Shown here piece after piece: positions 9,875 through 62,995 of a DNA stretch of 64,000 nucleotides. A program made the translations under genes and the position numbers. The DNA lies in the IMG/VR virus record IMGVR_UViG_3300026382_000001. One strand, given 5' to 3'. The stretch comes from a virus (Duplodnaviria; Heunggongvirae; Uroviricota; Caudoviricetes). A model generated the notes under the pieces. The model searched no databases. It saw only the letters and a list, made by a program, of their open reading frames with translations, and was not told the DNA's origin. Numbering within the stretch: the first letter of the stretch is position 1; every line of letters starts with the position of its first letter.

Positions 9875-10294
9875 TTAATTTCCAAAATTAACGATAAGGT
9901 TTCTCTTACTTAGAACTTCGATCTCATCTTTATTTTTTAAAACGATATCTGCTAACTGTTCTAGTTTATTCGTTAGGTCGTTTAATTTATCATCTTTTTG
10001 TTGCTGTTCTCTTTCAAATTCAAAAACCTTTTCTCTTAATGAATCGTTATCAAATCGTAAATGATTTATTTGATCCTTTAGAATTTGAAATTTCTTTTCA
10101 ATACTTCTAGAATCTAATTGATATTGAGATGAAGAATAATGATCAACGTGATCGAATTGAGGTACTTCTGGAATATTTGGTGATATCATATCATAACTAT
10201 TATCCAAACCATACGGATTTTGAATGGATATTGTATTATTTAAATTACTATCCATTGATCTAGATCTAAAACTAAATTTATTTTCGTTTGTCAT
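9875..10294 (-). CDS. coiled-coil protein with C-terminal LIxNF motif
   Basis: ATG at 10294 after AAAGGAAA; ends EVLSKRNLIVNFGN. Confidence 0.7.
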   Translation of the reverse strand: MTNENKFSFRSRSMDSNLNNTISIQNPYGLDNSYDMISPNIPEVPQFDHVDHYSSSQYQLDSRSIEKKFQILKDQINHLRFDNDSLREKVFEFEREQQQKDDKLNDLTNKLEQLADIVLKNKDEIEVLSKRNLIVNFGN

Positions 10295-10304
10295 TTTATT
10301 TCCT

Positions 10305-10520
10305 TTATTCAAATTTTGCTATTAATGGTCGCTTTTCTAATTCATTTAATTTTTCTTCCAAATAATCATTTTTAGATATAAGTGTATCTATCCTAGTAAG
10401 TACTTTATTAAGTTGTTCTTCTAAAATACTAATTCTGGTTAAATGCTCAAAATTATTTGATTCAAGAACTCGAACTTGATTCTGTAACATTTCTTTTCCC
10501 GTTTCCAATAAGGTTGTCAT
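10305..10520 (-). CDS. small coiled-coil protein with C-terminal LIxxF motif
   Basis: 71 aa with SD; ends ELEKRPLIAKFE. Confidence 0.7.
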   Translation of the reverse strand: MTTLLETGKEMLQNQVRVLESNNFEHLTRISILEEQLNKVLTRIDTLISKNDYLEEKLNELEKRPLIAKFE

Positions 10521-10535
10521 TTTATTTCCTTTAAA

Positions 10536-10967
10536 TTATTCAAAATTAATAGTTAAATCTTTTTTCTTTAATTCTTCAATCTCTTTTTCTAATTTTTTTA
10601 TATTAACATTAAGTATTTTTTTATCTTCTTTTAATTCACTTATATGATTTTGAAAAGTTTCCCGTTCTATTATACATACCGAATAACTAGTTAAAAATTC
10701 ATGATTTTTACTAAATAAGGATTTATTAATATTTATATTATTTATTACTTTAAATACTTCCTCTAATGATAATTTTATATTACATGTCTCTACTTTACCA
10801 TTTATATTTTTATTATTAAAAAATTTTAATAAATCTGTATTATTTTTAACGCCATCTAAATTTTCAATTATTAATTTTTCAATTGCTATTGTATAATCTG
10901 ATATTGATTCGTCCTCACATATATCTAATAATCTATCTATTTCTTCTTGACTTAATATATCTGCCAT
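10536..10967 (-). CDS. protein with FliM N-terminal (CheY-P binding) peptide mimic
   Basis: Starts MADILSQEEIDRLL (FliM-N consensus LSQxEIDxLL); remainder unrelated to FliM; ends KKKDLTINFE. Confidence 0.7.
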   Translation of the reverse strand: MADILSQEEIDRLLDICEDESISDYTIAIEKLIIENLDGVKNNTDLLKFFNNKNINGKVETCNIKLSLEEVFKVINNININKSLFSKNHEFLTSYSVCIIERETFQNHISELKEDKKILNVNIKKLEKEIEELKKKDLTINFE

Positions 10968-12699: not shown

Positions 12700-13008
12700 T
12701 TACATGCTCATATTCATCGGATCGCCTGATACAATCATCGCTTGTACTATTGGACCAACTACTGTAGCACCTAATGTACTCGTTGGCATACCACTATTTA
12801 AATCCATTGGTACTCCAGTCATAATCATGGCTGAACCACATGGAAATATAACAGTATCCCCCATCCGAGCGGTTGGCATACCAGTATTAAGGCTCATTGG
12901 ATCGCCGGATACAACTATTCCAGTGGCTGGTTGAGGACCTGGTCCAGCTGGTGGAGGAGGCCAAAAACAAGTACCAAAAGCAGTATCTCCAATTCGGGTA
13001 ACTACCAT
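12700..13008 (-). CDS. PAAR-repeat spike tip protein (T4 gp5.4-like)
   Basis: 102 aa; TRIGD, GMPTARMGD and GMPTSTLGA repeats; Cys residues. Confidence 0.85.
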   Translation of the reverse strand: MVVTRIGDTAFGTCFWPPPPAGPGPQPATGIVVSGDPMSLNTGMPTARMGDTVIFPCGSAMIMTGVPMDLNSGMPTSTLGATVVGPIVQAMIVSGDPMNMSM

Positions 13009-48288: not shown

Positions 48289-48365
48289 TGGTTGTCCTTA
48301 CTAGACTTGAACTAGTGACTCCATCCTTATCAGGGATGTACTCTAACCAACTGAGCTAAAGGACA
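48289..48365 (-). tRNA. tRNA-Ile (GAT)
   Basis: Full cloverleaf; CATCC-CTGATAA-GGATG; encoded CCA. Confidence 0.95.
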
Positions 48366-48374
48366 ATAATTAAT

Positions 48375-48450
48375 TGGTGCCGACAAGAAGATTTGAACTC
48401 CTGGCATCTTCATTACAAGTGAAGTGCTCTACCATCTGAGCTATGTCGGC
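48375..48450 (-). tRNA. tRNA-Thr (TGT)
   Basis: CTTCA-CTTGTAA-TGAAG; encoded CCA. Confidence 0.95.
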
Positions 48451-48462
48451 AAATGTTTATAA

Positions 48463-48537
48463 TGGTGACCTCACAGAGAATTGAACTCTGGTAACCAGAA
48501 TGAAAATCTGGGATCCTAACCACTAGACGATGAGGCC
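48463..48537 (-). tRNA. tRNA-Glu (TTC)
   Basis: CCAGA-TTTTCAT-TCTGG; encoded CCA. Confidence 0.95.
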
Positions 48538-48557
48538 ATTTTATAATTTTGAAAATG

Positions 48558-48632
48558 TGGCTCCGGATACTGGATTCGAACCAGTGACCAAGTGATTAAC
48601 AGTCACCTACTCTACCGCTGAGCTAATCCGGA
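48558..48632 (-). tRNA. tRNA-Asn (GTT)
   Basis: Loop CTGTTAA; G73; encoded CCA. Confidence 0.95.
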
Positions 48633-48708
48633 ATGTTTGAATCAAAGAATTTCTCCTATGATTATATTAAGGATATCTATACTTTTATTAATAGATATTT
48701 CTTAAATA

Positions 48709-48783
48709 TGGAAGAGGTAGAGGGATTCGAACCCCCGAATATCTGCCCCAAAAACAGATGCCTTACCGCTTGGCGATACCTCT
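48709..48783 (-). tRNA. tRNA-Gln (TTG)
   Basis: TCTGT-TTTTGGG-GCAGA; Gln-type D-arm GCCAAGCGGTAAGGC; encoded CCA. Confidence 0.9.
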
Positions 48784-48801
48784 AAATTATATGGTGTTAT
48801 A

Positions 48802-48877
48802 TGGTGGGCTGAGTAGAATTCGAATCTACGACCACTCCGTTATGAGCGGAGGACTCTAACCACTGAGTTACCAGCCC
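48802..48877 (-). tRNA. tRNA with CAT anticodon (elongator Met or Ile2)
   Basis: CTCCG-CTCATAA-CGGAG; paired 1-72, so not an initiator; encoded CCA. Confidence 0.9.
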
Positions 48878-59920: not shown

Positions 59921-59951
59921 GACAGGAGATTCTTGGTATTAGCCAAGAATT
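59921..59951 (-). terminator. intrinsic terminator with TCTCCTGTC tail
   Basis: 10-bp stem directly after the porin gene. Confidence 0.75.
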
Positions 59952-61141
59952 TAAAATAAATAATCTAATCTAAAATATATTCTTTTATCGTATTGATCTG
60001 TTTTTACTACAGCGTTACCACCTTTTAATTTTTGATAATTAATATCAGAGTACTTAAAATTAATACCAATATTTAATTTTGGCGTTAAACTAACGCCTGT
60101 ATAAAATTTATAAATATTCCCAAGATCTCCCCAAGAATAACTATCTTTATTATACTCATCTGTTACAGCCGATACCCAATATTTACTACTATGAAAATAT
60201 TCAATTCCATAATAAATATCTTTTTTAATAATTGGTAAATAATTTATTTTTTTAGCTCCTAAAAAAATACTATAACCATATCTAGAACCTTCGTTTGTGA
60301 ACGAAGCTCCTGGACTAGTTGGATCGGTAAATCCTGGTGGGAGAATTAATGGTTGTTCATTTGGTGTTAATTTAGTTCCATCGAAATCTGTTTTTGAACC
60401 GGCTATAATACCATATAAAGAATAATCAGGAGTATCATAGGATATTCCAATCCCAAACATATATAAATAACCTAAACTAACATCTTCGTCCCCAGATATA
60501 TTTTCATAAACTATGTCAGAAATACTCGTATTAAATTTAAATTTTAAATCATTGTTTAAATAATTTTTACTAGCAAATAAAAAGGCAATGTTTGATCCTG
60601 GTACAGTATGTTCATATCGATTTGTTGGTGATAATTCGTATTTTGTTCGTTCCGCATACCCCAGTTGTATTTTTCCATTATCAAAATGATGAGTATAAAA
60701 TACTCCAGGTAATGTTAAATAATACATAGTATATAAAGCATCCGATTGTTCTAGTCCTATTTTAGAATATTCCGACATACTTCCATACTTAAAAGATAAT
60801 AACCCAATAGTTAATATATCATCGTTGGTTATAAATGTATTTAAAGCCAATTCTGAAAATTCTAATTGAGTCCCTTCCTGAATTATATGATTATACGTTC
60901 TAGAATAACTTTCAGAATACTTAGAGAAATATATAGTACTAGTAATACTAAAATTATCAAATATAAAATCATTAAATGTCGTTATATCTATTAAATGACG
61001 AGAGCCAATATATTCACCGTTATTTTCCGAACTTGTGATAGTTCCATATACCACTTCTAAATAATTAGTATTCTTATATTCGAATGCCATAGCTAACTGA
61101 ACAACTATGCTTAATACCAAAATAATTTTAATTATCTTCAT
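59951..61141 (-). CDS. outer-membrane beta-barrel (porin-like) protein
   Basis: Signal peptide ending AMA; alternating aromatic strands; C-terminal beta-signal FRLDYLF. Confidence 0.75.
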   Translation of the reverse strand: MKIIKIILVLSIVVQLAMAFEYKNTNYLEVVYGTITSSENNGEYIGSRHLIDITTFNDFIFDNFSITSTIYFSKYSESYSRTYNHIIQEGTQLEFSELALNTFITNDDILTIGLLSFKYGSMSEYSKIGLEQSDALYTMYYLTLPGVFYTHHFDNGKIQLGYAERTKYELSPTNRYEHTVPGSNIAFLFASKNYLNNDLKFKFNTSISDIVYENISGDEDVSLGYLYMFGIGISYDTPDYSLYGIIAGSKTDFDGTKLTPNEQPLILPPGFTDPTSPGASFTNEGSRYGYSIFLGAKKINYLPIIKKDIYYGIEYFHSSKYWVSAVTDEYNKDSYSWGDLGNIYKFYTGVSLTPKLNIGINFKYSDINYQKLKGGNAVVKTDQYDKRIYFRLDYLF

Positions 61142-61519: not shown

Positions 61520-62995
61520 TTAATAATTTTCTTTTTTTGCTTTAATTCCTGGAATCGTAATTTCAAAAACAGTTCCTTTTTCGGAGGTTTCCCTTAATTT
61601 TAAATTTCCATGATTATCCCGTAATAATTCCTTATTTAAATATAATCCTACTCCTCTTGCGTTATCTTCTTTAACTGGTTCTGGTGCTATTTTTAAAAAT
61701 CGATTTGTTTTAGTAAATTTCGTTTTTAAAATATGTACTAAATCTAAAATATAACCTTTTGAATTATAAATTTTAGATTTTCCATTTTTATTTTTAGAAC
61801 TGTAATAATCTTTAAAAATATTTTGATATTTTGATGGAGATAGTAATAATCCAGTATCTGGATCTCTAAGACCAGTCCCATTATCAATTATAAATATATG
61901 TATTAATTTTATTTTTTCATTTTTAGTATCAGATACTTTTAGCTGTAGATGTATTTTTGTGGCACTGGCTTCTATACTATTTCTTAAATGATTAGAAATT
62001 ATATTTAATAAATCAGCATTTTTTAAATATCCATCTCCATGTTTAAGACTCCATTCCTCAAATGCTGGATCAATTATAATTTCAAAATAAGAAGCTTTAT
62101 AAATACTCATAGAATTAGCCGAATAATTTAAAATATCAAATAATGTTTTATTACCATTACTGTATTTGAGATTTTTAAAATTACTCATTCTTTCTAGTAC
62201 TGTACCAATTTGATCAATACTCGAATAAATCATGTCAAAATCTATTCCTTTAAATTGTTCGGTTAATGCACATGTTTTAAAACAATTTTTCGAAATATCA
62301 TATTGTCTTTTTAAAGATTGTTCTATTTTTAAAACAGATCCTTGAATAATAGCTACTGGAGTATTTAATTCATGATGTATATTTTCAGTAAGTATTTGCA
62401 TATTCTTTTCTCTAAGAATACTGCTAGTATTTATAACATCTAAAGCTTTTCGTCTTGATAATTTAAATTCATATATAAAAAATATAAAAGTAATAGGTAT
62501 TATAAATATAACATAAATATAAAAATACCCTTTTAGTAATTCGCTTAACGTATAATAACTATTACTTGATAAATACAAATTATATTTTGGTAAAGTTATT
62601 ATAATATTTTTATGTAGGTCTTCGTTAAAAGCTGTATTAACAGTATTTTCTATTATTGGAATTTTATTCAATTTCCAATAAATATTAATTATTTTACGAT
62701 TATTATTTTTTATTAATTTGCCATCTTTTAATACGTATGATTTATTTCTATTTATAAAACCAATTTGAGAACAGTTTGAAATAGTACAAATATGTTGTAA
62801 ATCTATTTCGTGATATTCTTCAATTGTTTTTACTACGGTGTTTTTTAAATTTTCTTTATACATGTGAACTATATTGTGAAAATTATTACCAAGTACTGCT
62901 CCCATTAATAAAGTATATATAGTTATTAAACCAAGATACTTAAAAAATATTGATCCAGAAGCATGATATAAACTTCCCATTTTAGAGGTTTCCAT
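61520..62995 (-). CDS. membrane sensor histidine kinase
   Basis: Two TM segments; H-box NIHHELNTP; N-box NHLRNSIEA; G1 IIDNGTG; G2 RGVGLYL. Confidence 0.9.
   Translation of the reverse strand: METSKMGSLYHASGSIFFKYLGLITIYTLLMGAVLGNNFHNIVHMYKENLKNTVVKTIEEYHEIDLQHICTISNCSQIGFINRNKSYVLKDGKLIKNNNRKIINIYWKLNKIPIIENTVNTAFNEDLHKNIIITLPKYNLYLSSNSYYTLSELLKGYFYIYVIFIIPITFIFFIYEFKLSRRKALDVINTSSILREKNMQILTENIHHELNTPVAIIQGSVLKIEQSLKRQYDISKNCFKTCALTEQFKGIDFDMIYSSIDQIGTVLERMSNFKNLKYSNGNKTLFDILNYSANSMSIYKASYFEIIIDPAFEEWSLKHGDGYLKNADLLNIISNHLRNSIEASATKIHLQLKVSDTKNEKIKLIHIFIIDNGTGLRDPDTGLLLSPSKYQNIFKDYYSSKNKNGKSKIYNSKGYILDLVHILKTKFTKTNRFLKIAPEPVKEDNARGVGLYLNKELLRDNHGNLKLRETSEKGTVFEITIPGIKAKKENY

Follow-up and report, generated by a model that had tools for sequence, protein, structure and literature searches.

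The window, the whole 64,000-nt stretch of DNA that we analyzed, is part of an uncultured myophage of ∼281 kb and 27% GC, and nearly every gene in it lies on the minus strand. Its genes include those for the tail sheath and tail fibres, and one virion protein is distant kin of the counterparts in Salicola phage SCTP-2 and phiKZ-like phages. The ORF of interest encodes the protein P0001 and belongs to a gene string that spans ∼15586 down to ∼4179, where it is placed between baseplate-type genes, such as that for PAAR, and large structural-looking ORFs. As shown in Table 1, AGGAAA, a good ribosome-binding site, overlaps the stop of the upstream gene, indicating that P0001 is a translationally coupled member of this tight string. 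A sigma-70 promoter scan gave no usable signal in DNA this rich in AT. The N terminus of P0001 reads MADILSQEEIDRLLDICEDE (MADILSQEEIDRLLDICEDESIS).

Table 1. Coordinates of P0001, its parts and other features of the window
Feature	Position	Strand	Remarks
145-aa ORF (139 aa from first ATG), NPYGLD near N terminus	9875..10312	-	Same coiled coil and tail as P0001 (...KRNLIVNFGN); 28% identical to the L002 counterpart
71-aa coiled-coil ORF, ends ...KRPLIAKFE	10305..10520	-	C-terminal module in common with P0001; absent from syntenic L002
P0001, 143-aa ORF	10536..10967	-	FliM_N-like tip, poorly predicted helical middle, C-terminal coiled coil, short hydrophobic tail
P0001 residues 101-143 and stop codon	10536..10667	-	Coiled-coil helix, tail KKDLTINFE; 23/43 identical to P0003
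P0001 codons 1-18, MADILSQEEIDRLLDICE	10914..10967	-	Copy of the Campylobacterota FliM CheY-P docking peptide and start of the acidic linker
Shine-Dalgarno-like AGGAAA	10972..10977	-	4 nt before the P0001 ATG, overlapping the upstream gene's stop (read directly)
PAAR gene	12700-13008	-	
CheW-like ORF, 136 aa	13029..13439	-	Pfam CheW E 6.6e-9, above cut-off; T. maritima CheW chains E ∼1e-4, full length
Six-tRNA cluster (Ile, Thr, Glu, Asn, Gln, Met)	48289-48877	-	
FG-GAP repeat protein, 612 aa	50717-52555	-	E 6e-96; unusual for a phage
Porin-like ORF	59951-61141	-	DUF3373 match E 2.4e-6
PhoR-type histidine kinase	61520-62995	-	HATPase_c; NCBIfam PhoR E 2e-7
Receiver-like ORF, 239 aa	63005-63724	-	Pfam Response_reg E 0.007, below cut-off; DD, D and T motifs visible

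Of the window's 79 ORFs with 50 aa or more, only 3 have a coiled coil followed by an L[TIV][IVA][NK]F tail, and these three lie in tandem (9875-10967, minus strand). Because the tail is restricted to them, we consider P0001 and the next two downstream genes to be a local family with a common coiled-coil/tail module. From the coiled coil and the common tail we suspect that P0001 forms oligomers, perhaps together with the two neighboring proteins. Compared with the related contig L002, the islet at 9875-10967 is hypervariable: identity drops to 36% in the FliM-tip gene and to 28% in the gene after it, against 94% and 90% in the flanking genes, and L002 has no counterpart of the 71-aa member. The NPYGLD of the 145-aa ORF was considered as a copy of a host peptide and rejected, as it had no match in five Campylobacterota genomes.

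The same gene string holds the CheW-like ORF, 2 kb upstream of P0001 and directly upstream of the PAAR gene. Judged by its sequence, this ORF is a second chemotaxis-type part of the phage. A word-indexed search of 5.8 billion proteins returned no relative. By sequence, neither the histidine kinase nor the receiver-like ORF, which lie toward the opposite end of the window, is CheA- or CheY-like, and we treat this pair as a matter separate from the FliM_N tip. The porin-like ORF was weighed as a pointer to the host and set aside as uninformative: its sole match, a weak one, came from an Arcobacter MAG (E 1e-4), and five non-Campylobacterota genomes gave nothing.

The first-pass annotation had described the start of P0001 as a near-perfect FliM N-terminal peptide of the Campylobacterota type. 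Bacterial FliM starts were taken from genomes by scanning one genome per prokaryotic species for back-translated ILSQEEIDxLL, which yielded at least 120 loci. Among the matches listed, 107 gave the peptide upon translation, nearly all of them at the start of FliM/FliY-type frames of 320–390 aa. Campylobacterota FliM proteins (350–370 aa among the matches listed) start MADILSQEEIDALL and continue with [DE]VV[DE][DE]E, and the Helicobacter/Campylobacter start that the annotation had given agrees with these genome sequences. The best ∼45 of the matches listed to the phage tip all come from Campylobacterota; the genera and groups represented among them are Sulfuricurvum, Sulfurimonas, Campylobacter, Helicobacter including H. 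pylori, Sulfurospirillum, Arcobacter and Nautiliales.

The P0001 start is identical to the Sulfurimonas and Sulfuricurvum FliM starts at 17 of 26 residues, including all of residues 1–11, whereas the variable position 12 is R where FliM has A. After the core, P0001 reads LLDICEDE versus LLDVVEDE in FliM of these two genera, so the match extends past the docking core for CheY-P into the first part of the acidic linker that is specific to the lineage. P0001 thus carries the LSQxEIDxLL-type CheY-P binding peptide of FliM at its N terminus, and the description as near-perfect is supported. At the DNA level, the first 60 nt of P0001 are identical to fliM genes at 36–44 positions. The back-translated ILSQEEIDxLL pattern occurs once in the 64-kb window and in 0 of 100 shuffles. 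The resemblance of the P0001 start to FliM, as a matter of sequence, is far beyond chance.

The tip, with D15 and the EDE linker, fits Campylobacterota and, among the matches listed, fits best with Sulfurimonadaceae-type FliM. For the phage itself, the Campylobacterota host proposed in the annotation is supported but not proven: the lineage-specific linker fits, and the case rests on ∼20 residues.

Beyond the tip, P0001 does not resemble FliM. At E≤0.1, Pfam gave no match in P0001 to the CheC-like middle domain of FliM (PF02154), nor was FliMN_C/SpoA (PF01052) matched in this 143-aa protein, which ends in a coiled coil. As a control, true FliM frames from viral and genome contigs scored E 1e-18 to 1e-79 with the same tool, which recognized both domains. 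The earlier statement that the remainder of the ORF is devoid of FliM domains is borne out by these searches. Comparison of the body with Pfam, PHROGs, NCBIfam and PDB sequences returned coiled-coil noise only, and the ESM Atlas held no usable match. In the word-indexed protein search the query itself was the sole match of P0001; an IMG/VR protein-pattern search found no relatives, and megablast of the region against the phage collection gave no match. A homologue of the whole protein in a non-chemotaxis family, which would make the FliM-like start a coincidence, was sought in these family and protein databases and was not found.

We modeled P0001 with AF2 from a two-sequence alignment, and the model is poor overall (pLDDT 59.5). 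It places a helix at residues 7–18, with low confidence up to ∼residue 66 and pLDDT below 50 for residues 16–37, and ends in a long helix that is confident (∼90) only at residues 110–130. A helix at residues 7–18 followed by a low-confidence linker is as expected of a tethered docking peptide. In the model, the motif lies within the first ∼15 residues, is helical and is followed by a flexible linker, the three properties by which we recognized a docking peptide. Through its predicted coiled coil at the C terminus, P0001 is probably oligomeric and stable.

When 1.8 billion representatives were searched exhaustively with HMMER, a single relative emerged, P0003 (138 aa, E 7.5e-14, full length), which sits on short contigs syntenic with the window, L002 among them. 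When P0001 and P0003 were compared by segment, 13 of 18 residues were kept in the tip, 16 of 82 in the middle and 23 of 43 in the C-terminal module; at the rate of the middle, 13 of 18 in the tip has a binomial P of ∼2e-6. Because the tip is kept while the body diverges, with flanks that stay 90–94% identical, the tip appears, from this comparison, to be under selection.

A more distant relative is encoded on L183, a jumbo phage contig of 290 kb and 27% GC, as a 114-aa protein that is 46% identical to P0001 residues 1–58 (pairwise E 1e-8). P0003 and this protein are similar to P0001 over the body and/or the coiled coil and were counted as members of its family. The FliM_N-tip gene of L183 is surrounded by small non-structural genes. 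At L183:1002-2280 (plus strand) the tip gene follows 114-aa and 192-aa ORFs in an array of small early-type genes, a setting quite unlike that in the window; the adjoining ORF looks CYTH-like by eye.

The same tip was found on phage proteins unrelated to P0001. When 50,697 phage records were searched by tblastn with residues 1–30, one match appeared, at the start of a 121-aa hypothetical protein (MAQILSQEEIDKLLDD...) of Campylobacter phage vB_CjeM_WX1. This WX1-type tip family is present in about 29 (at least 28) Campylobacter phage records; for comparison, a gp5-like hub gene was counted in 46. Its members come from Firehammervirus (CP220, CPt10, CP21 and IBB_35), from Fletchervirus (NCTC12673, CP81, CP8, PC14 and the F-series) and from DA10, an unrelated 35-kb Campylobacter phage. 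The WX1-type body is unrelated to that of P0001, as BLASTP from residue 20 to the end gave E>1.

Pattern scans of IMG/VR with M-x3/4-LSQxEIDxLL added five more small Pfam-less proteins (114–168 aa), encoded on contigs of 94–290 kb and 27–51% GC with phage-type neighbors; the L183 homologue described above is one of the five. In an alignment of ten phage proteins, the invariant columns were I4, L5, S6, Q7, E9, I10, D11 and L14 only, which is the docking motif, and conservation was confined to columns 1–14.

Several other occurrences of similar peptides were set aside. Phage lysozymes with an internal IF[TS]QEEID and terminases that start with FSQEEIDLLL are unrelated look-alikes, and small HTH proteins that the scans returned were discounted as well. 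Two full-length FliM genes on IMG/VR "viral" contigs, L194:5960-6982 (plus strand, 89,930-bp contig) and L207:2231-3232 (plus strand, 32,875-bp contig), contain PF02154 and PF01052 and were discounted too; they represent host DNA included in prophage calls or else fliM carried by phages.

Some members of the Campylobacter phage family are truncated. The IMG/VR copy of CPt10 has two FliM_N-tip genes (L174:909-949 and L180:1016-1056), a full 121-aa copy of the Firehammervirus type and a truncated 45-aa copy of the Fletchervirus type, and L176 has a truncated copy of 33 aa. Such truncated copies probably explain the 35-position phrog_31201, which probably covers them.

Synteny between the window and the Campylobacter phages was considered and rejected: in WX1, the gene that precedes PAAR does not resemble CheW, and the "transketolase-like" neighbor has no relation to the window's upstream ORF of 177 aa. 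In IBB_35 the counterpart, gene 1-31, was listed as "hypothetical, no homologs" and was missing from the set of 38 proteins that mass spectrometry identified in the virion (PMC3322345). Delivery of the tip protein with the virion is unsupported, as the IBB_35 gene product is outside the virion proteome and the L183 homologue is encoded among non-structural genes.

Taken together, these data led us to the following proposal. P0001 would act in the cytoplasm as a small phage protein whose free N terminus displays a copy of the N-terminal peptide of host FliM (FliM_N), which in bacteria docks CheY-P with high affinity. In an infected host of the Campylobacterota type, the tip would bind the alpha4-beta5-alpha5 face of CheY-P and compete for it with the FliM_N tethers of the C-ring, so that chemotactic control of motor reversal would be blunted or lost, the simplest outcome being a cheY-like phenotype. 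Each motor has ∼34 FliM_N tethers. In E. coli, the FliM_N peptide binds CheY-P with an affinity of only tens of micromolar, so that titration of CheY-P would need high expression of P0001.

We estimate the probability of a decoy role, in which P0001 captures host CheY-P and upsets the switching of the motor, at roughly 0.55. Binding, the way in which the motor responds and the gain for the phage are what we infer from the identity, conservation and recurrence of the peptide. Since the same tip is carried by unrelated small proteins of Campylobacter phages and other large phages, these phages probably tamper with host steering.

The genomic setting bears on this proposal in two ways, the CheW-like gene in the same phage counting for a decoy and the position of P0001 within a string of structural (tail/baseplate) genes counting against it. 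For a predicted complex we used Sulfuricurvum CheY (L146:1492-1863), an orthologue of H. pylori CheY1 (3GWG, E 7e-64); tip residues 1–45 with this protein scored 0.28 versus a mark of 0.32 in one uncontrolled prediction, which we count neither for nor against binding. Complexes of CheY with FliM peptides have been solved, 1F4V being an example.

According to PMC7957414, which cites Welch 1993 and Bren & Eisenbach 1998, FliM_N is the chief CheY-P docking site on the switch. The same study reported that FliM_N both tethers and potentiates CheY, that FliM_N fused to CheY potentiates clockwise rotation and that this potentiation is independent of tethering (PMC7957414). Because FliM_N potentiates CheY, a soluble FliM_N could also give the motor a different bias, even an opposite or more complex one.

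This property leads to another reading, in which P0001 is an adaptor or modulator rather than a sink. The tip would bind CheY-P or another host receiver (CheV, CheA-Y) and recruit or localize it to a coiled-coil phage assembly, built with the two neighboring paralogues and perhaps the CheW-like protein, or it would preload and potentiate CheY and so reverse the bias. The coiled coil and tail common to three adjacent ORFs only, of 79, fit such an assembly, as do the CheW-like gene in the string of P0001 and the potentiation of CheY by FliM_N apart from tethering (PMC7957414). However, the Campylobacter phage proteins and the other viral tip proteins have quite different bodies without this tail. 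Because the tip alone is common to the viral proteins, we favor the simplest, competitive role and regard an adaptor as unlikely.

We are still more doubtful that the tip binds a partner other than host CheY or has no function. The phage does encode a PhoR-type kinase, which could feed a receiver-like protein, and the weak match of the latter (below the Pfam cut-off) makes it a candidate partner; but this receiver is not CheY-like by sequence, and no receiver gene was noted in the portions of the Campylobacter phage records examined. An old capture is likewise possible, given how many of the first 60 nt agree with fliM genes; the tip would then be what is left, without function, of an acquired fliM 5' end. 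Such a remnant would not, however, keep 13 of 18 tip residues while the rest falls to ∼20% identity, nor would it recur on unrelated bodies across many phages.

That P0001 is an ordinary structural or assembly protein of the tail or baseplate, with a FliM-like start that arose by chance, we judge very improbable. The 11/11 identical start and the matching linker are far beyond chance, the distant L183 homologue lies among small non-structural genes, and gene 1-31 of IBB_35 is outside the mass-spectrometry virion set (PMC3322345), although the place of the gene between baseplate-type and structural-looking ORFs and the coiled-coil C terminus would suit a structural role.

The decoy proposal could be extended. 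The tip is found in both T4-like Campylobacter phage genera, DA10, this jumbo lineage and other large uncultured phages, and we suggest, tentatively, that copying of the FliM/FliY docking peptide may be a general, repeatedly evolved phage strategy against chemotaxis output. In the present phage, the tip might then be one "bait" on a modular tandem coiled-coil/tail family, alongside a phage CheW.

Phages use flagella as receptors. The full-text literature searched yielded no account of a FliM_N tip on a phage protein, nor of a phage protein that binds CheY or is aimed at the chemotaxis signal itself; the FliM_N peptide is known, and its viral use is new. If the tip binds CheY-P, phages would switch off or re-bias host steering during infection, which would bear on superinfection, on plaque expansion and on how infected cells spread. 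The tip is present in cultured, genetically studied Campylobacter phages (NCTC 12673, CP220, CP81 and DA10), so the idea is directly testable in an existing laboratory system. The tip also doubles as a host marker, pointing to Campylobacterota, for an uncultured 281-kb phage.

Among known systems, P0001 is closest to Campylobacterota FliM_N (H. pylori, Sulfurimonas/Sulfuricurvum), with which it shares the extreme N-terminal position, identical first 11 residues, the LSQEEIDxLL core and an LLDVVEDE-type acidic linker. Unlike FliM, it is phage-encoded, has only 143 aa, is without the CheC-like and SpoA/FliMN_C domains and carries an orphan coiled-coil body. The Campylobacter phage tip family (WX1 gp0109, CP220 gp071, IBB_35 gene 1-31, NCTC12673 ORF149, CP81 ORF072 and DA10 QGK89688) resembles P0001 in that its proteins are small (121–128 aa), start MA[QMH]ILSQEEIDxLL, are encoded by phages of Campylobacterota hosts and were never annotated; in contrast to P0001, its bodies are dissimilar and without the LTINF-type tail, and its linker after LL departs from FliM.

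Use of the docking motif on differing protein bodies is also seen in FliY/FliN-type peptides and in small cellular adaptors with a FliM_N peptide. Frames of 387–392 aa starting MSDG[IV]LSQEEIDALL, among the matches listed, were read as FliY-type by their length. These proteins and adaptors, unlike the viral P0001, belong to the motor or chemotaxis machinery of cells, and their genes lie with motility genes. In logic only, P0001 is analogous to phage sponges and decoys that neutralize a signaling molecule or protein of the host, such as Tad/Acb-type and DNA-mimic proteins, as a small protein that would act by binding and competing and not by catalysis. Unlike theirs, its target would be a motility response regulator, reached by copying the short linear motif of the regulator's partner.
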